This document shows positions 8,792 through 57,260 of a stretch of DNA of 64,000 bases, in pieces; the stretch's first letter is position 1; every line of letters begins with the position of its first letter. The stretch spans positions 159,311 to 223,310 of the forward strand of contig NZ_JBALDR010000064.1 of the NCBI RefSeq assembly GCF_036917315.1, in the 5' to 3' direction. Source of the DNA: Nostoc sp. (GTDB lineage: Bacteria > Cyanobacteriota > Cyanobacteriia > Cyanobacteriales > Nostocaceae). The notes below the pieces were generated by a model. It was not told where the DNA came from, made no database searches, and saw only the letters and a program-made list of their open reading frames with translations. The position numbers and the translations under genes were made by a program.

Positions 8792-9514
8792 ATGATTTCC
8801 TTCTCTAAATTTTTCAAGGAAAACCAATTAACTCAGGTAGCAGCACTTTTGTTATTGCTACTGCTGCTAGCAATGGCAGGGGTTCCCGGATACCTGACAG
8901 GACACTGGCAATGGAAACAGCCGCCCCCTGTTCCTACCCTCCACGAATTAAAACAGATCCGCAAGACTGGGTTAACCCTTCCTGGTTGGCACACCATTGA
9001 ACAAGCAGAACAGCAAATTGGCGAACATAATTGGTCTTTGCAGGTAGTTAAAAAAGAAGGTTCCGAATCCCAGGCAATCCTGCTTTTGTTGCCGCAAAAT
9101 GGACCTATGGATCAACCAGAGGTAGAGTGGACAGATGTTAACGGTTGGGGAAGATCGCGCTGGGGAAAGTGGGATATAGCTCAATCTCGTTCTGCGGAAT
9201 TTACTGTGAAACCATCTGCAAAGTTGGCTTCTAATGTCGAAACTAAAGTAGAAGCTAGATTCTTTCGCGCCTCCACACCACAGCAAACCTTCGCTGTTTT
9301 GCAATGGTATGCGATGCCAGACGGCGGAAATCCATCACCTTTTCACTGGTTCTTGGCAGATCAACTGGCACAGTGGCGCAAGCAACGCACTCCTTGGGTT
9401 GGCGTGAGCATTCTGATTCCAATGGAACCTTTGGGGCAGGTAGAAACATCTTGGACTTTAGCCCAGTCTATTGGGGAAACAGTGCAAGCTGCATTAATGG
9501 CAGGCGCTTTGTAG
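8792..9514 (+). CDS. Cyanoexosortase B system-associated protein
   Basis: Directly downstream of the exosortase; N-terminal TM then GVPGYLTGHWQW, LLLLPQNGPMDQPEVEWTD, VLQWYA. Confidence 0.8.
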   Translation: MISFSKFFKENQLTQVAALLLLLLLLAMAGVPGYLTGHWQWKQPPPVPTLHELKQIRKTGLTLPGWHTIEQAEQQIGEHNWSLQVVKKEGSESQAILLLLPQNGPMDQPEVEWTDVNGWGRSRWGKWDIAQSRSAEFTVKPSAKLASNVETKVEARFFRASTPQQTFAVLQWYAMPDGGNPSPFHWFLADQLAQWRKQRTPWVGVSILIPMEPLGQVETSWTLAQSIGETVQAALMAGAL

Positions 9515-9771
9515 AGTCTGTTATAGATGCCCTTGTGCAGAGATTTATCAAGAGTATGTCTATAAATTGTGTTCAGACTGAAACTCATCTAAAATGATGT
9601 TAACAACATGAAGTTAGAAATTAAATTGAGCAAAATTATTCTCTTTCTCTTGGTAAATACTTCTAGATAAAAGAGACATAGAAGGCATTTTTAGAGTAAA
9701 ATAACCACTCGGCGCGACTAATTTCTATATCAATATTTTCTACACCGATGTTCATAGATCCCAGTTATTAT

Positions 9772-11106
9772 ATGCGTGGATTCAGCGCCCTGTGTTTTGT
9801 CAGTCTTCAAGTAGGAGTTTTTTTAACAACGCCTATCCAACTTGTTGTTGCCCAGCCTTTTCCATCTCAAGGACAATCACCAGGGAAATTCCCTTCACCT
9901 GTGCCAGTTAATGAAGTTGCACCTCTAGGCACAAATGAAGAAATTTCCCCGCAACTGAGCCGCTACCTTTTAGGACCAGGAGATGCAATTGGTGTTGTGC
10001 TTCAGCGTCCTCCTGGTCCATACCGTTTAGGCATAGGAGATGGAATTAGCGTTTCGGTTCAGCGCTTTCCAGATTTGAGCTTTCAAGCTTTAATCAACCC
10101 AGAAGGTAATATTGCGGTGCCGTTATTGGGAACAGTTTCTTTACAAGGTTTAACTTTGGAAGAAGCTCAAGAAAAAATTCGCTTGGGTTTAAATCGTTAT
10201 GTAGTCGATCCAATAATAGTTTTAGCTTTAGCAGCACAGCGTCCAGACCTCAGTTTTCAAGCTGTAATTAGTCCAGAAGGCAACATCATCGTGCCGCAAG
10301 TGGGAACGGTGTCATTAAAAGGTTTAACCTTGGAAGAAGCTCAAGAAAAAATTCGCCTGGGCTTGAGTCGCTTTTTTCCAGATCCAATCGTGGTGGTATC
10401 CTTGGCAGGAACGCGACCAGTTCAAGTTACTATTAGCGGGGAAATATTTCGACCAGGAATTTATCCAATTAATTCACCAACACCCCGCGTTGCTGATGCT
10501 TTGCTAACATCTGGTGGTTCAACTTTGAATGCAGACCTGCGACAGGTGCAAGTACGGCGAAAGTTAATCGATGGTTCTGTGATTTCACAAACTATTGACT
10601 TATACGCAGCATTGCAAAATGGCGGTTCAATCCCGAATTTACGCTTACAAGACGGAGATGCAATACTCGTGCCCCGTCGTGAAGTTGGTAATGAGGATGG
10701 TTATGACCGCAATTTAGTAGCACGTTCATCCTTGGCCACACCACAGATTAGAGTCCGAGTTTTAAACTACGCTGCGGGTGGTCTTTCCATTCAAGCACTG
10801 CCTAACGGCAGTACATTTGTAGATGCTTTGGGAGGTGTAAATCTAGACACTGCTAATCTGAGAGATATCGCTCTGGTTCGCTTTGATTCGGAACGAGGCA
10901 AAGCTGTTACCCAAAAACTTGATGCTAAAAAAGCTCTAGGCGGTGATGCATCGCAAAATGTAGCACTTCAAGATAATGATGTTATTGTTGTTGGTCGGAA
11001 CCTCATTGGTAGAATTACTAATTTCTTGACCACCATTACCCAACCTTTCTTCAATGTTCAATCCTTTCTCCGGTTTTTTGACAACATCGGTGGTGGATCG
11101 AATTAG
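9772..11106 (+). CDS. wza: Polysaccharide export protein (Wza/OPX-like, Poly_export + SLBB domains) with internal domain duplication
   Basis: YLLGPGD, PEGNIAVPLLG, VTISGEIFRPGIY, LRLQDGDAILVP; two 58-aa copies PDLSFQ... Confidence 0.85.
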   Translation: MRGFSALCFVSLQVGVFLTTPIQLVVAQPFPSQGQSPGKFPSPVPVNEVAPLGTNEEISPQLSRYLLGPGDAIGVVLQRPPGPYRLGIGDGISVSVQRFPDLSFQALINPEGNIAVPLLGTVSLQGLTLEEAQEKIRLGLNRYVVDPIIVLALAAQRPDLSFQAVISPEGNIIVPQVGTVSLKGLTLEEAQEKIRLGLSRFFPDPIVVVSLAGTRPVQVTISGEIFRPGIYPINSPTPRVADALLTSGGSTLNADLRQVQVRRKLIDGSVISQTIDLYAALQNGGSIPNLRLQDGDAILVPRREVGNEDGYDRNLVARSSLATPQIRVRVLNYAAGGLSIQALPNGSTFVDALGGVNLDTANLRDIALVRFDSERGKAVTQKLDAKKALGGDASQNVALQDNDVIVVGRNLIGRITNFLTTITQPFFNVQSFLRFFDNIGGGSN

Positions 11107-35743: not shown

Positions 35744-38005
35744 ATGTATAGATTCCAGATCAGTGCATACACTCAAACGGGCGAATCCATTGGTCTGGTG
35801 GGTTCTACTCCAGAGTTGGGTTTGTGGGATATTAGTAAATGTGTTCATCTGCGTACAAGTGGCGATCGCTATCCTTTATGGTGGACAAATATTGATATTC
35901 AAGAGTCAGCCGATGTCTCACGACAAGCCACTTCGTGTCTACGCCAGAAAGTTGAATACAAGTATGTGCGTCTCGATGCAAACGGTAATGCCCGATGGGA
36001 GAGCTTACTAGATACAAACCGCTGGATTCCCATTGAGTCTAACAATCGTGCCAACACAATTATTGTGGATGATGGCGCATTCGGTTATTTACAACCTTAT
36101 CCGTTCGGATATATTGAGAACCCTGCTGTCCGAATACCCGTAGATGAAGACTCTGAAGGGTTAAAAATCGTAGTCATTGGTAGTTCCGTTGCATTAGGTC
36201 ATAAAGCCTGGTTTTTGCAAGGTTGGGTCTGGTTGTTGGCACAGGCTTTACAGCAAAAATATGGGCATAAACTCGTGAATGTGTCGGAGGTGGGGGCGAA
36301 TGTCAGCAGAACGATCGCTCGATTCCCCTGGTTTGTCACCCCAGAAAAACCGGATATCGTCATCATTGCCCTATCTCTGGGTAACGAAGGGTTAGCTTAC
36401 TGTTCCCCTCACGAACGGCGGGCGGCACAACGGCGGTTTGAAAGTGGCTTGCAGCAGCTTGTGAAAATGACGCGCGACATCGGAGCAATCCCGATTCTAG
36501 GCGGAGTCTATCCCAACGGTGATTATTCCTTAGAACATTATCGGCTAATCCGAGACACACACAAACGGATGCTAAGTTGGGGCGTGACTGTATTGGATTG
36601 GTTGGCAGCCGTGGATGATGGACAAGGACGATGGAAAGCTGGGACATCCTTCGATCCGGCTCACCCGAATACAGTCGGTCATAGCCTTATGTATCAGCAG
36701 ATCGACCACCATTTATTCGATATCGACAAAGACGAATTAGCAAAAGAAAAACAAAGCTTCCAGCAACCGAATGAATTTCCTATCTACTTTGATAATGGGG
36801 GCTTTCATATCTCTGTGTGTATAGAAGAGAAGCGTTTACGGATCGTTAATTCATCGGAATACAGCTACACGATCGCTCCCTATTGGCAAGAACTACAAAC
36901 TGCACTGCAAAGTAAGGCTGGATTGATACCGGGTATTTACATTGCGAAGTCTGTCAAGCCGGGGACGCTCCCTTTCTTGGCTGTAGAGGATGGTGCGATC
37001 GCAACTACAATAAACATCCCCCCAAATACCGATCTAGAATATAGCCCCGCCTTCAATCTCTTTTCGTCGAACAACGTTTTATTCGATGACGGGCATTTGG
37101 GGATTTTGCAAGCAGATGAACGCCACCTTTGGATAATCAACGAATCAGACAGCGAGTACAACATTCAGCCGATGTGGACGGAAGTTTGTAACGCACTTAA
37201 AGCCATGCCATCGGGTGTTTATGAAGATCCGCTTTATCCCGATGTCCCGTTTCGCACGATGATGATTGGTAAGGATGGGCTAGAAAGTCGGGTGAAAGCA
37301 CCACCTAAGTCTGCGGTGTTGTTCCAATACAAATGTGAGTTATCGGATATCAGCCGTGTGGCAATTCTTCCCCTTGGCGATCGCTGTGCCGTCCGCATGA
37401 TGCTATATAAGATGGAATATGATGGGCCCGCCTTTCCGTTTGATCTAACGCGCACCACTAATATTGCAGATGTTGCGGATGCGATCGAACACGGTTTTGA
37501 TGATATGTGGAACCCTGCTTTTTTGCATTACAGTCCTGATGCAGGCAGAATTTACCATAGTAAGTGGTCGGGTTTATCCTTTGCCCATGAAGTTGAGGAG
37601 ACAGACGACCCCACGAACGATATGTTTCCCGTCCATGAACGGATGCGCGTTCGTTACACAGCACGCTCTGAAAGGTTTTGGTATGCACTGCGGCATTGCG
37701 ACAAAGTGCTTTTTGTTCGCACAGGAATTAGCGATCGCGGTGGTGTAATTGATCTGGTCAAGAAGCTAGAAAAACAATGCCAGGGGAAGCCATTTCATTT
37801 GTTGCTTCTTTCTCCCCAAAGCGGCGATGAGTTTTTAGACCTTCCCAATGTGCTGCATTACAATGTCGAGTTTAATCCCGATCGCATGTATGACGATTTG
37901 GGACACTGGATGTACTGCACAGAGGTGATGCGAGAAATTCTGCAATCCCTTGGTGTGTCCAGTAAAAACCTTTTTTGGTGTCCGCCGAAAATACCCAAGG
38001 TGTGA
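35744..38005 (+). CDS. CBM20 + SGNH/GDSL hydrolase + DUF1796 (papain-like) fusion protein
   Basis: GESIGLVGSTPELGLWD...YPLWW...VEYKY (CBM20); VIGSSV, GAN, SLGNEG, DPAHP (SGNH blocks); LPLGDRCAVR...FPFD (DUF1796-like). Confidence 0.8.
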   Translation: MYRFQISAYTQTGESIGLVGSTPELGLWDISKCVHLRTSGDRYPLWWTNIDIQESADVSRQATSCLRQKVEYKYVRLDANGNARWESLLDTNRWIPIESNNRANTIIVDDGAFGYLQPYPFGYIENPAVRIPVDEDSEGLKIVVIGSSVALGHKAWFLQGWVWLLAQALQQKYGHKLVNVSEVGANVSRTIARFPWFVTPEKPDIVIIALSLGNEGLAYCSPHERRAAQRRFESGLQQLVKMTRDIGAIPILGGVYPNGDYSLEHYRLIRDTHKRMLSWGVTVLDWLAAVDDGQGRWKAGTSFDPAHPNTVGHSLMYQQIDHHLFDIDKDELAKEKQSFQQPNEFPIYFDNGGFHISVCIEEKRLRIVNSSEYSYTIAPYWQELQTALQSKAGLIPGIYIAKSVKPGTLPFLAVEDGAIATTINIPPNTDLEYSPAFNLFSSNNVLFDDGHLGILQADERHLWIINESDSEYNIQPMWTEVCNALKAMPSGVYEDPLYPDVPFRTMMIGKDGLESRVKAPPKSAVLFQYKCELSDISRVAILPLGDRCAVRMMLYKMEYDGPAFPFDLTRTTNIADVADAIEHGFDDMWNPAFLHYSPDAGRIYHSKWSGLSFAHEVEETDDPTNDMFPVHERMRVRYTARSERFWYALRHCDKVLFVRTGISDRGGVIDLVKKLEKQCQGKPFHLLLLSPQSGDEFLDLPNVLHYNVEFNPDRMYDDLGHWMYCTEVMREILQSLGVSSKNLFWCPPKIPKV
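35915..35941 (+). mobile_element. 27-nt small dispersed repeat inserted in frame at a HIP1-like site
   Basis: GCCGAT[GTCTCACGACAAGCCACTTCGTGTCTA]CGC; adds VSRQATSCL. Confidence 0.7.
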
Positions 38006-48468: not shown

Positions 48469-48993
48469 TCAACTATGGATAATGCTATCGAGTTGGAGTT
48501 CAAGATAAATAGTTTTAAATCCGCTCTTGTTTGGGGATTCACCAATTTGGTAAAAACCGCGTTTGAGATAAAGCATTCGGGCTACATAAGAAGAAGAATG
48601 TTCCCAAGTATATAACCGTAAGTACCTTTTTGCTTTTGCTTGTGCTAGGTCGATGGTAAAGTCTAATAGCTCTTTTCCAATTCCTTTTCCCCGAAATTGT
48701 GATGCTACACAAAACCAGCCTAACCAGTCAGCTTCTTGTTCGTCCTCGCTTTTGCAATATAACCCAGTTAGCCCAATTACTTGGAAAGATTTCTCATCGA
48801 TAGCAACCCAGTAATTGAGTTGGGTAATTCCACTGTTTGAAAACCATTGAGCATATTTATCTCGATATAAACTTGCCGCCAACGATGGACTATCACTACT
48901 ATTATTCACGCCTGGGAAAACTTCCTCTCTTAAGTGAATTGCTTGCTCCAGGGTTGCTATCGATAATGATTCAATGTACATAGCACTAGTCAC
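48469..48993 (-). CDS. GNAT acetyltransferase
   Basis: WFCVASQFRGKGIGKELL, LYLKRGF. Confidence 0.9.
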   Translation of the reverse strand: MTSAMYIESLSIATLEQAIHLREEVFPGVNNSSDSPSLAASLYRDKYAQWFSNSGITQLNYWVAIDEKSFQVIGLTGLYCKSEDEQEADWLGWFCVASQFRGKGIGKELLDFTIDLAQAKAKRYLRLYTWEHSSSYVARMLYLKRGFYQIGESPNKSGFKTIYLELQLDSIIHS

Positions 48994-49129: not shown

Positions 49130-49651
49130 CTAGTTTTCATACCTAATTTGCTTTTCCTCTTTCAGTTTGTTTTTCTTAGTTGGGGATGGCACCAAATCGA
49201 AACGAAATACGAGCAAGTCCTGAATCTGAATGCTGTTTTCGTAGCTTGGTTGAGGTAAATACCAAAAGTAGTCCTGGCGCACACAATCCATGCGAAATCC
49301 GCACTTTTGATAAAAAACAATGTTGGCGATACTTGAATTAGACGTGCCGACGAGTATCTGTCTCTTGCCGCGTTGCCTCGCCTCTTGAATCAACCAAGCA
49401 ACGAACTCTTTACCTAATCCCTGCCTTTGAAAGTCAGGGGCTATACCAAGTTCCATAATTTCGCAGGGATCGCTGCGCCATTTCATCGTTGCTGCACCAA
49501 CCAAGTGTTCGCTGTCGTCCATGCGATATACAGCATCGACGAGGTTAGCAAGCCCCCATCGCAGCGCACGCTCCGATTGTTCTGCCAACAGTAGTATTGG
49601 AATCAGCGCTTCAAGTTCATCGTCACGAGCTTGTCGAATAGCGATCGCCAT
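49130..49651 (-). CDS. GNAT acetyltransferase (YvbK-like)
   Basis: LGIAPDFQRQGLGK, VGTSNSS, FYQKCGFR. Confidence 0.9.
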   Translation of the reverse strand: MAIAIRQARDDELEALIPILLLAEQSERALRWGLANLVDAVYRMDDSEHLVGAATMKWRSDPCEIMELGIAPDFQRQGLGKEFVAWLIQEARQRGKRQILVGTSNSSIANIVFYQKCGFRMDCVRQDYFWYLPQPSYENSIQIQDLLVFRFDLVPSPTKKNKLKEEKQIRYEN

Positions 49652-49750: not shown

Positions 49751-50140
49751 CTATCTGCTTACTCTGGAAGGTTCAACCCACTTATCCCAAGAGCTATCGT
49801 AGCCATCATAAGTAATTTTATAAAGATCGTTACTAACTTCTAAAACCTGTCCTGGATACCATTTTCCTTTCCACAAAATTCTCACTGCATCTCCAGTTTT
49901 AAATGATGCTCGGAAGCGTCCAGTGCCAACCCATTCATTCCAGGAACTGCTGTAACCATCGTAAGTAATATAGCACCTCTCATCATTAACCTTAAGTACC
50001 GTTGCTGGATACCATCTTTTCTTCCAAAAAACCTCAGCCTTTTGTCCCACAGAACAGGGGGAAGCAGCAAAAGCGCTAGGAATTAATGTTCCTACCCAAG
50101 TTGCCATAAAGATGGCACCAAACAATACTTTGTTTTTCAT
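49751..50140 (-). CDS. Secreted protein with two Tudor/Agenet-like repeats
   Basis: Signal peptide (SAFA); WKKRWYPATVL...ITYDGYSSSWNEWV and WKGKWYPGQVL...ITYDGYDSSWDKWV. Confidence 0.8.
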   Translation of the reverse strand: MKNKVLFGAIFMATWVGTLIPSAFAASPCSVGQKAEVFWKKRWYPATVLKVNDERCYITYDGYSSSWNEWVGTGRFRASFKTGDAVRILWKGKWYPGQVLEVSNDLYKITYDGYDSSWDKWVEPSRVSR

Positions 50141-50465
50141 CGTTTTTTCTCTCCTCAAACAGTAAAACCGAATTTTGATGATGATTTCTGGAAATCTACT
50201 TCAAAATTTGCAACTAACTGTTACTATTTTCGGGGAATTTATTTAGCGATCGCCTCAGCAAAAATTAGGAATTTCTGCCGCCAAATGTGAAGATAGCACC
50301 ACAGGATTCCGCATTTAAAAATAACAGTAGTTACTGATTTTACGAATTTGACATCAATGTATGGTAGTGCTTATACCAAAGCTGAATTTCATATATTATT
50401 CATTAGATATCTTGCAAAATTCCCTACCTAACACCTCACTCCTTAATCCCCTCCCCTTACCAAGG

Positions 50466-50619
50466 CTACGGTGTACACACAAGTCGAATTACCCCCCTTA
50501 ATCCCCCCTTATAAAGGGGGGAAACAAGAAATCTAGTACCCTCCCCTTTCTAAGGGGAGGGTTAGGGTGGGGTAAAACCTTAGTTAATCAGCTATTTCAG
50601 ACTTGTGTGTACATCTTAG
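50466..50619. mobile_element. MITE with CTACGGTGTACACACAAGTC ends
   Basis: ctacggtgtacacacaagtc ... gacttgtgtgtacatcttag; flanks cttaccaagg/ctttagtagg only partly match. Confidence 0.8.
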
Positions 50620-50652
50620 CTTTAGTAGGGTGGGGTTGTTATTGTCTATTTT

Positions 50653-51600
50653 TTAATTCCCCTTTCTAAATCTAATTTCATAAAGTCCGAGCAAACCTGC
50701 TGCTACTAACAAAGGTAAGAAATAATAGACTCCACGATAAGCTAACATTGAACCCAAAACTGCCGCCGCCGAAACTTTTGAGGAGAGAATCAGCAAAATT
50801 ATAGTTTCAAATACTCCCAAACCACCGGGAACATTACTGACAACGCCTGCAAACATCGCTAGTAAATAAATACCCAAAAAGTCTAGATATGACAAAGATA
50901 TATTGCTAGGAAGTAAAACATAAAGAACTGCTGCCGCCAGAATCCAGTCAAAACTAGAAATTGCTATTTGAGCCAGGGATATTTTCAAAGAAGGAAATCG
51001 AAATTCATGTCCACGAATTATTAATGGTTGTTTAATAAAAATACTTCCTAGTAAATAAACCGCAACTAATAGCAGAAAAATTACGCCAATGGGACGCACA
51101 GTAGCAAAAGGTAAATGTAATTGAGTAGGAATCTTGAGGGGATTGATGAGGAACAAGAAACCTGCAACGGCAAACATCCCCAACCAAAAGGTAAAATTGG
51201 CGAAAGCAATGACTTGAGCGATCGCAACTGCTGACGCTCCCCAACTAGCATAAAATCGATAACGGATAGCACTACCAGTTAGCAAGGCAAAACCGATGGT
51301 ATTACTAAATGCAGAGCTAATAAAGTTAGTGAAAGCGATCTTATTCCAGCTTAGGGAGCGATTAATGTAGTTAAAACCTAAGATATCGTACCCAATCATC
51401 ACTAGATAGCCCAAAGCTGTCAGCCAAATTGCCCAACTTACGCGACTTTTGGGAATAGCAGCTAGAGAGTTGAGGATATCACGATAATTATACTGACGTA
51501 ACTCGTTTGCGATCGCCCACAGGGAAAGCAGCAGCAGCAACAAGCCAAACAAAGAACTGAAATTGAGTCGCAGCTTTTTAAGCATCATCAAGAAACTCAT
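50653..51600 (-). CDS. MprF N-terminal-like membrane domain (lysylphosphatidylglycerol synthase TM / flippase)
   Basis: Multi-TM; GFALLTGSAIRYRFY, VSNVPGGLGVFE, LAYRGVYYFLP. Confidence 0.85.
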   Translation of the reverse strand: MSFLMMLKKLRLNFSSLFGLLLLLLSLWAIANELRQYNYRDILNSLAAIPKSRVSWAIWLTALGYLVMIGYDILGFNYINRSLSWNKIAFTNFISSAFSNTIGFALLTGSAIRYRFYASWGASAVAIAQVIAFANFTFWLGMFAVAGFLFLINPLKIPTQLHLPFATVRPIGVIFLLLVAVYLLGSIFIKQPLIIRGHEFRFPSLKISLAQIAISSFDWILAAAVLYVLLPSNISLSYLDFLGIYLLAMFAGVVSNVPGGLGVFETIILLILSSKVSAAAVLGSMLAYRGVYYFLPLLVAAGLLGLYEIRFRKGN

Positions 51601-51732
51601 CCTAACTCTTGACTTTTAATTTACAACCAGTCGTAAAGTTTCCATCTTGTTGACACAGCGTTGACATACCGTTTGCATAAGCTTTTGAAGGCAAGCAACG
51701 ATTAACTACCCCATGCCCAATGCCTTTCAAAG

Positions 51733-52695
51733 ATGAACTACAAACAATCTAAAATTCTCTTGCTATTTTCAGTATTAACCCTAGTTGGCTGTAATTTCTC
51801 CCAAGGTGTCGTCGCAAAACCACCGCAACAGCAGGATTTACAAACAAAGCCTTCCATTCTTCCAACCCAGCCGAATACTAGCAACTCAGCGACTCTCCTA
51901 ACCTATAAAATTGAAACTTACGATAGTCAAGCAATGGGTGCAAGTCGCACTTATGGCGTTTCTTTACCTCCTGGCTATGAGCAAAACCCAAAACAAAGGT
52001 ATTCTGTAATCTTTCTCCTCCACGGTGGACATGGTAATCCCAGTGATTGGTTTATTCAGAATAAGGGACAAGCTCTCAAGACTGTAGAACAACTTTATAC
52101 TACAGGTAAGTTGCCACCCAGCATCATCATTACACCAGATGGCAACGACAAACGCGGCTCTAGTCCCTACCGAGATCCCGAATATATCGATGGCCCTAAC
52201 GGTAAAGTCTCTACAGCCGTAGGCGATGAGTTAGTAAAAGTTGTGCAAAGCCGTTATCGTACAATAAATAATCCAGATTTTTGGGCGATAGGTGGTTTAT
52301 CTTCTGGTGGTTGGGGAGCAATGAATGTGGGATTACACAATTTGGATCGTTTCTCGATTTTATTTAGTCATAGTGGTTATTTTAATGATAAAAGTGGCCC
52401 AGCGAATAGCCCAATATTTTATATTAAAACCATTCCCAGACAAGCTCAAAAAAGGTTGAAAATTTATCTAGATTCGGGTACATCAGATATTGATGAAATC
52501 AGGGAAGCAGAGCGATTTAGCAAAGTCCTAAATCAACTGAAAATTTATAATTCATTTCGTGAGTTTCCTGGCAGTCATACTTGGCAATACTGGCGGAAAC
52601 ATTTAGCAAATTCATTGACATTTGTCGGCGAACAATTTCGAGCTTCTGAAACAGCAAATATGGCTGATAATTTAAATATTAATCAAAAAAAGTAA
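51733..52695 (+). CDS. Putative esterase (alpha/beta hydrolase), predicted lipoprotein
   Basis: LVGC lipobox; VSLPPGY, FLLHGG, GGLSSGG, YLDSG, GSHTWQYW. Confidence 0.88.
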   Translation: MNYKQSKILLLFSVLTLVGCNFSQGVVAKPPQQQDLQTKPSILPTQPNTSNSATLLTYKIETYDSQAMGASRTYGVSLPPGYEQNPKQRYSVIFLLHGGHGNPSDWFIQNKGQALKTVEQLYTTGKLPPSIIITPDGNDKRGSSPYRDPEYIDGPNGKVSTAVGDELVKVVQSRYRTINNPDFWAIGGLSSGGWGAMNVGLHNLDRFSILFSHSGYFNDKSGPANSPIFYIKTIPRQAQKRLKIYLDSGTSDIDEIREAERFSKVLNQLKIYNSFREFPGSHTWQYWRKHLANSLTFVGEQFRASETANMADNLNINQKK

Positions 52696-52845
52696 TTAAA
52701 ATAATTAAAAATCCCTGTGATCGATAATACTACTTTGCAAAACCGTTGATATTTAAACATTAATGTGAAAAACTCTACTGCAATTTCTCAGCAGATTAAT
52801 TATAGTAAGTTCTAAGGGAGGTGATTTTTTTAGCTGTAAAAGAAT

Positions 52846-53754
52846 ATGAAGATTTATAAATCGTTAATTAGCTTAGTAGGAGCGATCGCACTTCTTACTA
52901 CTGCTGGTTATTATTATGTATTCATCTTAGGTGCGCCACAACTAGACCCACCCAAAAAAGAGGCAAATACTGGGCTAAAGTTTCAATTAGCAACCTTCAA
53001 CTCCCAAGCGATGGGTGCAGTCCGTAACTACGGCGTGATTTTGCCGCCTGACTATAGCAAAAATCCCCAAAAGCGCTACCCTGTGATATTCTTACTACAT
53101 GGTGGTCACGATGATGCTCGTGCCTATGCTAATAAATATGCACTCTTAGACGTGTTGCATGAACTTTATCAAAGTGGAAAATTACCGCCATCGATTGTGA
53201 TTACACCTGATGGTAATGATAATCGCGGTTCTAGTCCTTTATACGACCCCGATTACTTTGATGGGCCGAATGGCAAAGTGGGAACTTTGATTGGTTCAGA
53301 ATTAGTACAAGTTGTCAAGTCGCGCTACCGCACTTTGAAAGAACCCCAATTTTGGGCGCTAGGAGGTCTATCTTCTGGAGGATGGGGGGCATTTAATATC
53401 GGATTACGCTATCTCAACAACTTTCAGATTTTGTTTAGCCATAGCGGTTACTTTACTGATGACAGCGGTTCACAAAATAGTCCTCAACAAATTGTGCAAC
53501 AGCTAACCGTTCAAGATAGGAAGCGATTGCGTGTTTACCTAGATGCGGGTGTAAACGATACTAATTTGCTAGCTTCTACCAAAGCCTTCAACGAAACCTT
53601 AAATAAATTAGGCATTGCTCACGTGTTTTATGCATTTCCTGGAGGTCATGGTTTGTCTGGTGCTAATGTAGGCTGGAACTACTTCCACAAACATCTTAAA
53701 GATTCACTCTCGTATGTAGGGGAACAGTTTAAAAAGTTAGAAATTAGGAGTTAA
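52846..53754 (+). CDS. Putative esterase (alpha/beta hydrolase), membrane-anchored paralog
   Basis: N-terminal TM; LPPDY, FLLHGG, GGLSSGG, YLDAG, GGHG. Confidence 0.88.
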   Translation: MKIYKSLISLVGAIALLTTAGYYYVFILGAPQLDPPKKEANTGLKFQLATFNSQAMGAVRNYGVILPPDYSKNPQKRYPVIFLLHGGHDDARAYANKYALLDVLHELYQSGKLPPSIVITPDGNDNRGSSPLYDPDYFDGPNGKVGTLIGSELVQVVKSRYRTLKEPQFWALGGLSSGGWGAFNIGLRYLNNFQILFSHSGYFTDDSGSQNSPQQIVQQLTVQDRKRLRVYLDAGVNDTNLLASTKAFNETLNKLGIAHVFYAFPGGHGLSGANVGWNYFHKHLKDSLSYVGEQFKKLEIRS

Positions 53755-53812
53755 GAGTTAAAAATTGAAAACTCCTAACTCCTAACTTTTTACTCCTAAC
53801 TACTAACAAAAA

Positions 53813-55483
53813 ATGACAAATAATTTAAAAACTAAGATTGGACTTTGGAGTGCAGTTTTTCTAACAGGTTTAGTCGGAATAGTAAATTTATTATCAGCAG
53901 TGACACCTAACCTGTATGGGCGGACTCACTGGTTAAAGGAATTTTTACCATTTGAAATTCGCGCTAGCGGTCATATATTCTCAGCATTGACTGGGTTTGT
54001 TTTATTAACACTTGCTACTAATTTATTACGCCGGAAAAGAATAGCCTGGTTACTAACCATTGCTTTACTAGTAATTTCCATTTGCAGCCACTTACTGAAG
54101 GGACTGGACTATGAAGAAAGTCTACTCTCTGGAGTTTTGCTAGTGCAATTAATTTGGATGCGCCATTTTTTCACGGCGCAATCAGACCGTCCTTCCATTG
54201 CACGGGGAGTTAGAGTGCTGATAGGCGCTTTACTATTTACCCTGGCATACGGAACTATTGGATTTTACTTGTTAGATGGGAAGTTTTCAGAGAATTTTAA
54301 TTGGCGTGAAGCGATAGTTCAGACTTTGGCGATGTTCTTCACCGAGGATAATTGGGGACTGCAACCAAAGAGTCGATTTGGAGAATTTTTTGCTAATTCT
54401 ATCTATATTATCGCCGCAGGTACTATTACTTATGCAATAGTAATGCTGTTGCAACCTGTGTTTTGGCGCAATCTAGCAACTACAAACGAGCAACGAAGAG
54501 TTAAAGAAATTGTCGAACAATATGGATGTTCTTCTTTAGCAGCACTTACACTCTTAAATGATAAAAGTTATTATTTCAGTCCTTCGGGTAATAGTGTAAT
54601 TGCTTATGTTCCCAAAGGACGGGGCGCGATCGCATTAGGAGATCCCATCGGCCCGATTGAAGACCGTAAAGAGACAATTATTGCTTTCCAGCAGTTTTGT
54701 CAGCGTAATGACTGGTATCCTGGCTTTTACCAAACTATGCCCGATGATGTTGAGCTTTACAAATCATTGGGGTTTAAGGTACTCAAGATTGGAGAGGAAG
54801 CGATCGTTGACTTAAAAAGTTTTACCTTACAAGGTAAAGCCGGTAAAAACTTTAGACCATCAATCAGTCGTTTAACTAAGCTAGGATACCAAATCGACTT
54901 TTACCAACCACCCATCGCCAATGATTTATTGCACCGACTCAAATCTGTAAGTGATGAATGGTTGAAAATGGTACAAGGTTCAGAAAAACAATTTTCTTTG
55001 GGTTGGTTTGACGAAGCTTACCTGCGAGAGTGCGAGATTGCTGTGGTGCATAATCCTGAAGGTCAGATCAGCGCCTTTGCCAACATTATCCGGGAGTACC
55101 AACTTAACGAAGCGACTATTGACATGATGCGACATCGCTCGTCTCTTGAAAATGGCACAATGGACTTTCTATTTATTTCCCTGCTCCAGCATTTTAAAGA
55201 GGGTGGCTACGACAGCTTTAATTTCGGGCTTTCTGCGCTTGCTGGAGTTGGAGACAACCCCGAATCACGCCGCTTGGAGAAAGTATTGCACTATCTTTAC
55301 GAGCATTTGAATCGTTTCTACAACTTCAAGGGACTGCACGCCTACAAAGACAAGTTCCGCCCCCGTTGGGAACCGCGTTACTTGGTTTACCCCAGTTTAG
55401 CCACCTTACCAGATGTAGTTGTAGCATTGATTCGCGCAGATTCAGGCGATCGCCTCTTCGATTATTTCAAACCCGGAGCCTAA
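53813..55483 (+). CDS. MprF C-terminal-like aminoacyl-phosphatidylglycerol synthase (DUF2156 / LPG_synthase_C)
   Basis: TM region then DKSYYFS, IALGDPIG, KIGEEA, IDMMR, FNFGLSAL, YNFKGLHAYKDKFRPRWEPRYL. Confidence 0.9.
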   Translation: MTNNLKTKIGLWSAVFLTGLVGIVNLLSAVTPNLYGRTHWLKEFLPFEIRASGHIFSALTGFVLLTLATNLLRRKRIAWLLTIALLVISICSHLLKGLDYEESLLSGVLLVQLIWMRHFFTAQSDRPSIARGVRVLIGALLFTLAYGTIGFYLLDGKFSENFNWREAIVQTLAMFFTEDNWGLQPKSRFGEFFANSIYIIAAGTITYAIVMLLQPVFWRNLATTNEQRRVKEIVEQYGCSSLAALTLLNDKSYYFSPSGNSVIAYVPKGRGAIALGDPIGPIEDRKETIIAFQQFCQRNDWYPGFYQTMPDDVELYKSLGFKVLKIGEEAIVDLKSFTLQGKAGKNFRPSISRLTKLGYQIDFYQPPIANDLLHRLKSVSDEWLKMVQGSEKQFSLGWFDEAYLRECEIAVVHNPEGQISAFANIIREYQLNEATIDMMRHRSSLENGTMDFLFISLLQHFKEGGYDSFNFGLSALAGVGDNPESRRLEKVLHYLYEHLNRFYNFKGLHAYKDKFRPRWEPRYLVYPSLATLPDVVVALIRADSGDRLFDYFKPGA

Positions 55484-55868: not shown

Positions 55869-57260
55869 ATGACAAAGAATCAGATTTCGTTAGTAGAACT
55901 AATCCAAATTTTTGCAGAATATCGCAACAATATTATCGTCAATATTAAACAACTGCAAGAAGATTATCAAAGAACAGGTGTTAAGCGTATTAGAGGTGTA
56001 AGAAACGAAAATGGAGAACTGTTACAACCTTGGTTAACAACAGAACATATAGATAATGCTAAGTATGTTGATATGGGCGATTTTCAGTTTAGCCGCAACA
56101 CGGCTACTATCAATATGCTTGTAAAACGTAGAGTTAAACTTGCCAAACTTGAAGACCAAACTCCTACTATTGAAGTAGCAGGTTTGTTAGTCAATGACCT
56201 CAACACCTTTAATAATTACACGATTGTAAGTGACGGCAAAATCAACGTAAAGTCATTACTAGTAAAAATTAGCAATAAAAAAGCCTTTGATTTACTCAAA
56301 CAAAAAGGCATACTGGACGCAGAAGAATTTGACTTTCGGGCAGAATATACGATTCAGTTAGATAACTTGCCACTTGTCGCTGCTAATAGTCGTTACAGCA
56401 GTATTGATAGACTATTCAATGAACTAGCAGAAATTAAAGTACTGACTAGTATTATTTCTGCTCACTTAAAAAAGGAATCAGATGTATTTATCGAGGCACA
56501 GTTAGATGAATTTAAAAAGCACTATCTGTCTAAGAATACTTACATCAACTTTCCTACAACCAATGAATACACTGATATCAGCGAAGCTTTAGCTAATGGT
56601 ACTATTGAATCAAAATTGAGTTATAAAATCGATATCGGCAGTCAAGATATTCTGAACTTGAGTAAGTTACCTTCTGCTAACAAGTTTCTCAATAGAATGT
56701 ATCGTCTTTATGACAAAGAAACTGGAGAAATTATCATTAAACCGAGTTTCGAGATGGCATTTAATCAGAATCTCGCTGTGAGGCACAGATTGCTGTCATC
56801 ACGTACCAAGATTACAAAAGTTGATGAATTGATGAAACCAATTTTTGATGATTTTCTTGGGCTTGAGCAAAATGGTATTGTTGGAGATATTCTTCAGAAA
56901 GTTGGTGCTGATAGTTTGGCGCAGTTCTTGCAGGATAAACAAACTGGTAAGCAGATAAACAAAGAAGAAATGGTTGCAGCTTTAACAGTGGCAAATAAAA
57001 AGTTAGAACAATATGCAGAAAATATCTACCAAGATAAAATATCTCCCTTAGTATTTTACATTGGTTCTACTGGACTATTGCCAGATCAAATGGAAGCCAA
57101 AGCCATGACTGCTGATGAAGCTGCTGCTAAATACCCAAATTTGCAATTTTCTAAAGATGAGCAAGAAGGTAGTTTTTTTGCAGTTGGTGATAGTATTCTC
57201 AGCATTTATAGCAAGACTGAATATTACAGCAAAAAGGTAACTACCCTAAATCATTTGTGA
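55869..57260 (+). CDS. Hypothetical protein (463 aa)
   Basis: Long ORF with GAAGG upstream and a hairpin downstream; no motif recognised. Confidence 0.8.
   Translation: MTKNQISLVELIQIFAEYRNNIIVNIKQLQEDYQRTGVKRIRGVRNENGELLQPWLTTEHIDNAKYVDMGDFQFSRNTATINMLVKRRVKLAKLEDQTPTIEVAGLLVNDLNTFNNYTIVSDGKINVKSLLVKISNKKAFDLLKQKGILDAEEFDFRAEYTIQLDNLPLVAANSRYSSIDRLFNELAEIKVLTSIISAHLKKESDVFIEAQLDEFKKHYLSKNTYINFPTTNEYTDISEALANGTIESKLSYKIDIGSQDILNLSKLPSANKFLNRMYRLYDKETGEIIIKPSFEMAFNQNLAVRHRLLSSRTKITKVDELMKPIFDDFLGLEQNGIVGDILQKVGADSLAQFLQDKQTGKQINKEEMVAALTVANKKLEQYAENIYQDKISPLVFYIGSTGLLPDQMEAKAMTADEAAAKYPNLQFSKDEQEGSFFAVGDSILSIYSKTEYYSKKVTTLNHL

Follow-up and report, generated by a model that had tools for sequence, protein, structure and literature searches.

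Why would a cyanobacterium encode the two halves of MprF in two separate genes on opposite strands, with two putative exported serine esterases lying between them, and on what substrate would the esterases act? The question is raised by a 64,000-nt stretch of DNA from Nostoc sp. (RefSeq assembly GCF_036917315.1, contig NZ_JBALDR010000064.1, positions 159,311 to 223,310 of the forward strand; hereafter the window), in which positions 50653-55483 carry a flippase half of MprF, a lipoprotein esterase (Est1), a membrane-anchored esterase (Est2) and an MprF synthase half. Resistance to cationic peptides, daptomycin and acid stress depends to a large extent on the aminoacylation of lipids by MprF, work on which has, to our knowledge, been confined almost wholly to pathogens and rhizobia. 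Our literature searches on MprF and aminoacyl-phosphatidylglycerol synthases (aaPGS) in cyanobacteria gave nothing relevant. We consider it somewhat probable that the locus is a synthase, flippase and deacylase system for an aminoacyl lipid, in which the two esterases are outer-face hydrolases; that the esterases process the aminoacylated lipid in some way is very probable, because their pairing with the synthase recurs across phyla. The gene identities, the split point, the topology signals, the catalytic motifs, the synteny across phyla and the transcription described below were all established directly. The features of the locus are as follows (ORF, open reading frame; TM, transmembrane segment; CE1, carbohydrate esterase family 1).

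50653-51600, minus strand: MprF flippase half (ORF1; subdomain 1, TM1-8), a stand-alone gene of 315 aa; PF03706, bifunc_MprF
51601-51732, intergenic: divergent region between the flippase half and Est1, 132 bp, presumed bidirectional promoter region
51733-52695, plus strand: Est1, lipoprotein serine esterase of the PF00756/CE1 type, 320 aa; lipobox LVGC with Cys20, proposed triad S190/D252/H282
52846-53754, plus strand: Est2, N-terminally membrane-anchored serine esterase of the PF00756/CE1 type, 302 aa; proposed triad S176/D238/H268
53755-53812, intergenic: spacer between Est2 and the synthase with heptamer (CTCCTAA-type) repeats, 58 bp
53813-55483, plus strand: MprF synthase half (ORF4; subdomain 2, TM9-14, tandem-GNAT), 556 aa; PF09924, PF16995, bifunc_MprF

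The two MprF halves thus lie 2.2 kb apart on opposite strands. An initial annotation of this DNA, made from the sequence alone, had described the N-terminal membrane module as a separate gene transcribed divergently from the other three across a 132-bp gap; the four ORFs and the gap are as it described them. Scans of the locus for consensus promoters and terminators gave sites no more frequent than in shuffled sequence.

MprF is divided between two genes at a structural boundary

ORF1 matches LPG_synthase_TM (PF03706, E=8e-14) and aligns to positions 4-300 of the 841 positions of the NCBIfam model bifunc_MprF (228 bits). ORF4, in which five to six predicted hydrophobic segments precede the synthase domain, aligns to positions 316-840 of the same model (513 bits), its residues 4-230 falling on MprF positions 316 to ~540, and it matches LPG_synthase_C (PF09924, DUF2156) over model positions 2-298 of 298 with 291 bits (cut-off 27.5, E=1e-86). 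Its matches in the Protein Data Bank (PDB) are full-length MprFs (9w50, 6lvf and 7f47), the lysyl-phosphatidylglycerol synthase LysPGS (4v36, E=6e-65) and the alanyl-phosphatidylglycerol synthase AlaPGS (4v34, E=4e-54). It also passes the LysX-type TM model PF16995 (32 bits, cut-off 26.8), and its score is 513 bits to canonical MprF versus 174 bits to LysX. An amino-acid specificity was not assignable from similarity, the scores being 223 bits to LysPGS and 188 bits to AlaPGS. The NCBIfam equivalog for the single bifunctional MprF, NF033480 (cut-off 600 bits), is reached by neither ORF1 (228 bits) nor ORF4 (513 bits). Because both halves score below 600 bits, lie on opposite strands and are separate ORFs even in a locus where they are collinear (L092), we file the locus, on its sequence, as a two-gene variant of MprF and not as the canonical bifunctional protein.

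The position of the break can be compared with a solved structure and with engineered proteins. ORF1 aligns to residues 26-325 of the Rhizobium tropici protein (RtMprF, 6lvf) and ORF4 from residue 354 on. In the cryo-electron microscopy structure of RtMprF, subdomain 1 comprises Leu24-Arg325 (TM1-8), subdomain 2 comprises Ser334-Arg530 (TM9-14), and cavity P is formed by both (PMC8131360). The Staphylococcus aureus derivative MprF(-8), which is without the first eight transmembrane segments, still synthesises lysyl-phosphatidylglycerol (Lys-PG); six such segments are the minimum for activity; and the membrane and synthase parts supplied as two proteins restore full peptide resistance in trans (Ernst et al., PMC2774229). 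By alignment, the natural break coincides exactly with the subdomain 1/2 boundary of RtMprF (PMC8131360) and with the engineered MprF(-8) cut, i.e., the limit of the minimal synthase (PMC2774229), and ORF4 has the same architecture as MprF(-8). Since the break falls at the subdomain boundary and the engineered halves work in trans, the Nostoc genes may be regarded as a natural version of the engineered pair. ORF1 retains GVFE (E265) and Y288-R289-x-x-Y292. Alignment to the homologous MprF 7f47, extended by inference to RtMprF, places E265, Y288, R289 and Y292 at the gate and head-group residues Glu280, Tyr303, Arg304 and Tyr307. All three parts of the canonical proteins of S. aureus, R. tropici (LpiA) and Pseudomonas aeruginosa, i.e., subdomain 1, subdomain 2 and the tandem-GNAT synthase, are thus found in the Nostoc locus; the difference is that the canonical protein is one polypeptide of ~850 aa, whereas Nostoc has two genes.

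Gene decay was considered as the origin of the split and rejected, since both halves are intact ORFs in at least 70 species (72-99% protein identity), they are separate ORFs of 317 and 555 aa even in L092, where the flippase and synthase genes are collinear and adjacent, and the break lies at a structural boundary.

Est1 and Est2 are anchored esterases of the CE1 type

Est1 and Est2 are paralogues with 54% identity, and both belong to PF00756 (E=1e-25 and 4e-20; 91 and 73 bits versus a cut-off of 22). The initial annotation had called one a lipoprotein and the other TM-anchored, each keeping GLSSGG, Asp and His, and these features are all present. The N-terminus of Est1, MNYKQSKILLLFSVLTLVGC, is a lipobox, and its Cys20 is at least 90% conserved among 28 homologues. 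In Est2, a hydrophobic helix at residues 2-27, seen in an AlphaFold2 model built from an alignment of 42 diverse sequences (pLDDT 93), is predicted to be uncleaved and to act as a membrane anchor; the model of Est1, from 28 close homologues, was poor (pLDDT 62) and was not used. Given the lipobox of Est1 and the N-terminal anchor of Est2, both are predicted to reside on the extracytoplasmic face, i.e., in the periplasm or the thylakoid lumen. GLSSGG occupies residues 188-193 in Est1 and 174-179 in Est2 with S190 and S176 as the nucleophiles; the acid is found in GTSD (D252) and GVND (D238), and the histidine in SHTW (H282) and GGHG (H268), respectively. Conservation of these residues was followed in the 28 homologues of the Est1 alignment, in which S190, D252 and H282 are invariant, and in the 42 diverse sequences, in which the Ser and His are invariant; the Ser and His also align with those of the solved CE1 esterases 7b5v and 5vol.

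The closest solved relatives by sequence are CE1 feruloyl esterases, 7b5v (E=6e-23) followed by 5vol and 1jjf. A Foldseek search with the Est2 model gave 5vol as the top match (E=1e-21, target-normalised TM-score 0.80-0.85), and the structural neighbours are 5vol, 7b5v, 7xrt, 1jjf and other CE1 feruloyl or acetyl-xylan esterases, then esterase D/S-formylglutathione hydrolases; no Fes or Ag85/PS1 chain is among the top 50. The Fes equivalog NF007758 gives 50 and 47 bits versus a cut-off of 222, over the C-terminal hydrolase part only, with PDB entry 2b20 at E=9e-4, and the Corynebacterium glutamicum mycoloyltransferase PS1 (6sx4) is a weak match to Est1 (E=1e-7 over ~140 residues). The earlier designation "Fes/antigen-85-type" therefore holds at the level of the shared Pfam family PF00756, but the nearest structures are of the CE1 type, with Fes and Ag85 outside the top 50 and Fes at 50 versus 222 bits. 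No match to the VirJ family (PF06057) or to an AhyD-type Pfam family was found in Est1 or Est2 at E<=0.01, PF00756 being the sole family; the profiles for polyhydroxyalkanoate (PHA) depolymerase and polyhydroxybutyrate (PHB) esterase gave weak matches.

Est1 and Est2 share fold and catalytic motif with the CE1 esterases (5VOL, 7B5V, 1JJF) and with esterase D/S-formylglutathione hydrolase, but differ from them in being membrane-tethered, in having an aaPGS partner in place of xylanases and in sequence (21-28% identity); no carbohydrate-binding module was found among the first-tier esterases. Enzymes of the CE1 and esterase D types hydrolyse esters and thioesters of small acyl groups. By analogy, a fold of this type would be compatible with an aminoacyl ester substrate, the removal of an aminoacyl group from the glycerol of phosphatidylglycerol (PG) being chemically close to the known reactions. 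Searched exhaustively, 1.84 billion cluster representatives yielded 8783 PF00756 relatives, among which 41 clusters (50% identity) lie at E<1e-30; Est1 and Est2 are thus members of a tight clade in a very large family.

The four-gene cluster is conserved in Nostoc and moves as a unit in Nostocales

Of 404 loci from a scan of genome contigs the best 80 were kept, all of them of the Nostoc type; this sample gives depth rather than breadth. The same order, flippase half on the minus strand followed by Est1, Est2 and synthase on the plus strand, was found in 67 of the 80 loci. Three of the other 13 are cut by contig ends and ten keep the flippase half and Est1 only; the flippase half is present in 80/80. 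Since the four-gene order is kept in 67 loci despite differing flanks, the arrangement is not due to chance. A protein of Nostoc sp. 'Peltigera membranacea cyanobiont' 210A shares 98% identity with Est1. In Fischerella and Anabaena the same cluster occurs in different neighbourhoods; the cluster therefore moves as a unit.

In the ten reduced loci (L028, L037, L039, L041, L049, L051, L052, L056, L061 and L070; at ~8900-11000 in most) the divergent flippase half and Est1 are intact, which suggests that these two genes can persist without an adjacent synthase. The downstream genes in these loci vary, with an S8 subtilase in three.

In Fischerella, Anabaena and others (e.g., L081:6134-6961 and L082:6164-6988, with 12 further loci), a third hydrolase gene, encoding a PF00561/PF12697 alpha/beta hydrolase of ~275 aa, separates the flippase half from Est1; it has been lost from the lineage of this window. 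Being without an apparent N-terminal signal sequence, its product is presumably cytoplasmic, and it may be an AhyD-like deacylase of the inner face.

The esterase-synthase pair recurs across phyla

To the Nostoc-type loci were added 80 loci from a metagenome scan seeded with Oscillatoria/Kamptonema-like esterases, which together with contig look-ups of representatives of the 50%-identity clusters make a combined diverse set of 90 loci, compared by all-against-all clustering. The esterase was found in 88 of them, the synthase in 68, the flippase half in 24 and an extra hydrolase in 14. Adequate flanks (at least 2.5 kb on each side of the esterase) are available for 57 diverse loci, and in 51 of these the synthase lies within 3 kb of the esterase; in L092 it lies just beyond that distance, after the permease and flippase genes. 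The median gap from esterase to synthase is 40 nt, with 49/58 same-strand downstream cases at 150 nt or less and sometimes a 4-nt overlap.

The commonest layout (29 cyanobacterial loci) is one esterase followed by the synthase, with no flippase half within 10 kb. Other layouts are alpha/beta hydrolase-esterase-synthase-flippase half, esterase-synthase-flippase half, esterase-permease-flippase half-synthase (L092) and synthase-esterase. The last, of the Oscillatoria/Kamptonema type (L084-L089, e.g., L085:8697-9863), has the reversed order and a protein of ~350-390 aa that matches the C-terminal synthase domain only, with ~30% identity to ORF4. In cyanobacterial loci the flippase half is never fused to the synthase. 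Every esterase in the 88 loci carries an N-terminal hydrophobic segment; the single-copy esterases of 49 diverse loci are Est2-like and TM-anchored, and the lipobox-bearing Est1 type is nearly confined to loci with two esterases, i.e., the Nostocales arrangement. As the single-copy esterase is Est2-like, the core module would consist of Est2 and the synthase, with the flippase half and Est1 as a second, partly independent pair, and Est2 is, judged from these sequences, the likely ancestral and widespread partner of the synthase. The description of a split MprF bracketing two esterases therefore stands for Nostoc, but the widespread core is one Est2-like esterase with the synthase, the flippase half being present in 24 of the 90 loci.

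A second tier of esterases (31-39% identity), from Armatimonas-like, Ktedonobacterales-like and unclassified bacteria, has an adjoining aaPGS gene in six of seven informative cases; two further contigs were uninformative, one with the esterase gene at its end and one of only 918 bp. The gene of an Armatimonas-like esterase shares 4 nt with the start of a fused 880-aa MprF gene; in a metagenome-assembled genome the esterase gene overlaps by 4 nt the end of a gene for a 537-aa synthase; a third is convergent with a 910-aa MprF gene and has a two-component system upstream; a fourth lies two genes upstream of a 594-aa synthase gene; a 518-aa form with a membrane N-terminus and an esterase C-terminus precedes a 582-aa PF16995+PF09924 synthase (the L170-type layout, Ktedonobacterales-like); and one of a divergent pair of esterase genes precedes an 821-aa PF09924 protein. 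Adjacency is thus seen in at least three phylum-level lineages, with differing gene orders and MprF architectures and with overlapping stop and start codons. The initial annotation had proposed as its own refutation that the esterases would not be syntenic with DUF2156 genes elsewhere; they are, across phyla, in the 51 of 57 diverse loci and the six of seven second-tier cases. A homologue search with the long-form esterase P0208 aimed at Actinobacteria matched only Ktedonobacterales and metagenomic proteins.

Directly upstream of the module, a divergent two-component system (a BaeS-like histidine kinase of ~365 aa and an OmpR-family regulator of ~235 aa) is present in at least 11 loci, and such neighbours fit a role in envelope stress. 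The loci are L085, L086, L088, L089, L093, L095, L097, L101, L109, L154 and L167, one of them non-cyanobacterial; none is found near the cluster in this window. Among further neighbours, an amino-acid permease is located between the esterase and the flippase half (L092:10869-12800), a PEMT-family methyltransferase follows the esterase (L165:7924-8316, also L166), and an AI-2E-family transporter is found beside a fused MprF (L167:9708-10823) and beside a lone esterase (L121:4571-5635).

All four genes are represented in RNA assemblies

RNA assemblies of related Nostoc (X23 and X24) and lichen metatranscriptomes (X22 and X28) were used, the contigs of which are unstranded and possibly contain DNA. 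All four genes are represented in the assemblies of related Nostoc at similar, modest depth; the 3' part of Est1 and all of Est2 lie on one contig, and the entire synthase gene on another. The heptamer repeat of the 58-bp spacer between Est2 and the synthase is dispersed in the genome, and for this reason the RNA contigs break there, at a contig depth above 1000. The RNA data are evidence of gene presence and of Est1-Est2 linkage, short of a full operon map. The heptamers, of the CTCCTAA/AACTCCT type, lie at 53770-53807 and resemble the short tandemly repeated repetitive (STRR) sequences of cyanobacteria; the window contains ~21 copies of CTCCTAA or its complement.

Comparison with known aminoacyl-lipid systems

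The concept of an operon containing an aaPGS and a hydrolase is already known, the PesT class included. Hydrolases encoded with aaPGS genes control the levels of aminoacyl-PG (aa-PG), as for AcvB, PA0919 and AhyD (PMC6103681, PMC13197417). AcvB/VirJ (Agrobacterium), PA0919 (P. aeruginosa), AhyD (Enterococcus faecium) and the fungal ErdH, which acts with ErdS, resemble the Nostoc esterases in that a serine hydrolase is coupled to a lipid aminoacyl-transferase (PMC6103681, PMC13197417, PMC7334510). AcvB and PA0919 are, in addition, extracytoplasmic and membrane-associated like the Nostoc esterases, with a proposed role in aminoacyl-lipid homeostasis. AcvB/VirJ and AhyD differ in belonging to the VirJ (PF06057) or AhyD-type families, whereas Nostoc has two PF00756/CE1 paralogues with different anchors. 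By analogy, Est1 and Est2 may work like AcvB without being members of its family. The initial annotation had set the two esterases apart from AcvB/VirJ and AhyD, which is correct as to family, but a third class of hydrolase beside aaPGS, the PesT-type "putative esterase", is already listed (PMC6103681).

In C. glutamicum, PesT is a "putative esterase" encoded upstream of AlaDAGS, an aaPGS homologue of the six-TM plus GNAT type, in one operon (Smith et al. 2015, as related in PMC10580965 and PMC6103681). The layout is similar, an esterase gene directly 5' of a six-TM plus GNAT synthase gene without a flippase subdomain, to that of Est2 and ORF4 (58 bp apart) and of L170; the question of hydrolase versus transacylase, posed for PesT (PMC6103681), is common to both systems. 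It matches the two options given in the initial annotation, in which the esterases either tune aminoacyl-lipid levels or hand the aminoacyl group on. The systems differ in that PesT-AlaDAGS is found in Actinobacteria and the present one in Cyanobacteria and in Armatimonadota-like and Chloroflexota-like hosts, that Nostoc has, in addition, a flippase half with its own gene and a lipoprotein as second esterase, and that ORF4 resembles the canonical MprF forming aa-PG much more closely than the actinobacterial type. The esterase searches brought up no named homologue from Actinobacteria.

Proposed mechanism and its alternatives

In the synthase, flippase and deacylase reading, the 556-aa protein would esterify an amino acid from aminoacyl-tRNA to a membrane lipid at the cytoplasmic face. 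Cyanobacteria have PG as their sole major phospholipid, and the lipid is, from family membership, most likely the PG glycerol head group, since ORF4 scores 513 bits to the aa-PG-forming MprF versus 174 to LysX. The 315-aa flippase half would dock on the six TM helices of the synthase and complete the translocation unit. Est2 and Est1 would then attack the exposed aminoacyl ester with their Ser-Asp-His triads, a step proposed from the conserved synteny, the topology and the fold. Hydrolysis is the most likely outcome, because of the analogy with AcvB, PA0919, AhyD and ErdH, and it would set the steady-state level of modification and hence the surface charge. In many relatives the adjacent BaeS/OmpR-like system would control the module. 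We infer the lipid, the amino acid and hydrolysis over transfer from the sequences.

Several observations weigh against this reading. No report of aminoacyl lipids in cyanobacteria was found in the literature searched, and sequence alone does not separate hydrolysis from transfer. No synthase neighbour is present in the flanks of three first-tier loci, and no aaPGS neighbour was found for one long-form second-tier esterase. Neither Est2 nor the synthase, nor remnants of them, was found within up to 10 kb in the ten reduced Nostoc loci, and no flippase half lies within 10 kb in most non-Nostocales loci; the four parts therefore need not occur together. Signals for Sec export and lipoproteins in cyanobacteria may also direct proteins to the thylakoid lumen, and the RNA contigs, unstranded as they are, may include DNA. 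Finally, PesT is needed for alanyl-PG (Ala-PG) to appear in Corynebacterium, which does not resemble the behaviour of a simple deacylase (PMC6103681).

The last point leads to a possible but distinctly less probable explanation, namely that the esterases are transacylases which form an aminoacyl-Ser intermediate from an aminoacyl lipid that has been flipped or flips spontaneously, and transfer the group to an outer-face acceptor (PG, galactolipid, lipopolysaccharide, peptidoglycan or protein), i.e., ATP-independent aminoacylation in the periplasm, comparable to mycolyl transfer by antigen 85. Both PesT and AlaDAGS are required for Ala-PG, and a role for PesT in transferring alanine from alanyl-diacylglycerol (Ala-DAG) to PG has been proposed (PMC6103681). 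Actinobacterial enzymes with the same six-TM plus GNAT architecture make aminoacyl-diacylglycerol (aa-DAG) (PMC10580965), and ORF4 passes the LysX-type model PF16995 (32 bits, cut-off 26.8); but its 513 bits to MprF versus 174 to LysX argue for the aa-PG-forming type. PF00756 includes true acyltransferases and Est1 matches PS1 at E=1e-7, but the nearest structures are hydrolases and Ag85 is outside the top 50. The 29 cyanobacterial esterase-synthase loci without a flippase half within 10 kb are consistent with transfer; in Nostoc, however, the flippase half keeps the aa-PG head-group residues, so that a self-flipping carrier would be unneeded there. Moreover, all of the characterised hydrolases linked to aaPGS (AcvB, VirJ, PA0919, AhyD and the fungal ErdH) are deacylases.

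A more speculative extension, which we put forward tentatively, is that the aaPGS-esterase pair is a two-step relay that exports aminoacyl groups without ATP and is widespread in Cyanobacteria and in Chloroflexota-like and Armatimonadota-like bacteria. Such a relay, if true, would account for the PesT phenotype, and where a locus has no flippase half the esterase would take the place of flipping, as neutral aa-DAG crosses the bilayer unaided, and would then make the final surface lipid.

We think it unlikely that the esterases act instead on acyl chains or on the acceptor, as lipases or lysophospholipases that supply or recycle diacylglycerol or lyso-PG or remodel the fatty acids of the aminoacyl lipid. 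The alpha/beta-hydrolase fold is shared with lipases, the PHA-depolymerase and PHB-esterase profiles match weakly, and the second role proposed for PesT is to alter the substrate pool of the synthase (PMC6103681); but the nearest relatives of Est1 and Est2 cleave small acyl groups and not long-chain esters, and the predicted position of the catalytic domains, on the opposite side of the membrane from the synthase active site, makes substrate supply awkward. That the association has no function, the esterases being ordinary CE1 carbohydrate esterases placed there by chance or the MprF genes being in decay, would fit the best sequence and structure matches (feruloyl and acetyl-xylan esterases) and the ten Nostoc loci without Est2 and synthase, but it is very improbable and effectively refuted by the synteny survey, given adjacency in at least three phylum-level lineages in varied orders and architectures with overlapping codons, intact halves in at least 70 species (72-99% identity) that are separate even when collinear (L092), a break at the structural subdomain boundary, transcription of all four genes and first-tier esterases with no carbohydrate-binding module.

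Novelty and significance

As far as the literature searched shows, four features of the system are new. MprF is naturally encoded by two genes; the system is present and conserved in cyanobacteria; its esterase has been duplicated to give a lipoprotein and a TM-anchored form; and the partnership of PF00756 with aaPGS extends widely across phyla. A conserved and transcribed version of this lipid-modification machinery is thus carried by cyanobacteria, among them symbionts of lichens and plants. The natural split offers a ready-made system for the study of flippase-synthase assembly and of lipid hand-over, the recurrent PF00756-aaPGS pairing gives a broad comparative footing for the question of hydrolase or transacylase posed by PesT, and Est1 and Est2 have soluble ectodomains that should suit easy assay. 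An aminoacyl-PG product, if that is what is made, would add a new class of lipid to those of cyanobacterial, and possibly thylakoid, membranes, with a possible bearing on desiccation and acid tolerance and, because host antimicrobial peptides are cationic, on symbiosis.

Neighbouring genes and repeats

The ~500 bp 3' of the flippase gene (50159-50652) are rich in G/C palindromes, e.g., CCCCTTAGAAAGGGGAGGG, and reach a very high depth (240-537) in the RNA assemblies of related strains; the region could be a dispersed repeat, a miniature inverted-repeat transposable element or an abundant small RNA. Next to it on the minus strand, 49751-50158 encodes a small protein with two Agenet/Tudor-like domains and an N-terminal hydrophobic stretch, probably secreted judging from its sequence, which is found in the flanks of 36/80 Nostoc loci. 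The Agenet/Tudor-like fold is usually associated with eukaryotic chromatin readers.

Two GNAT acetyltransferase genes (48469-48993 and 49130-49651, minus strand) lie ~1 kb from the flippase gene. They were considered as N-acylases of Lys-PG, and this was rejected as they are absent from all 170 other loci; the pair is missing even from Nostoc loci ~98% identical at Est1, and looks like a strain-specific insertion outside the system. Directly 3' of the synthase gene, a 463-aa ORF (55869-57260, plus strand) with no Pfam match is found in the flanks of 52/80 Nostoc loci, and its presence may simply mirror local synteny. Farther away, 35744-38005 (plus strand) encodes a 753-aa multidomain protein with CBM20 (starch-binding), GDSL lipase/acylhydrolase and DUF1796 domains, the last a putative papain-like peptidase.

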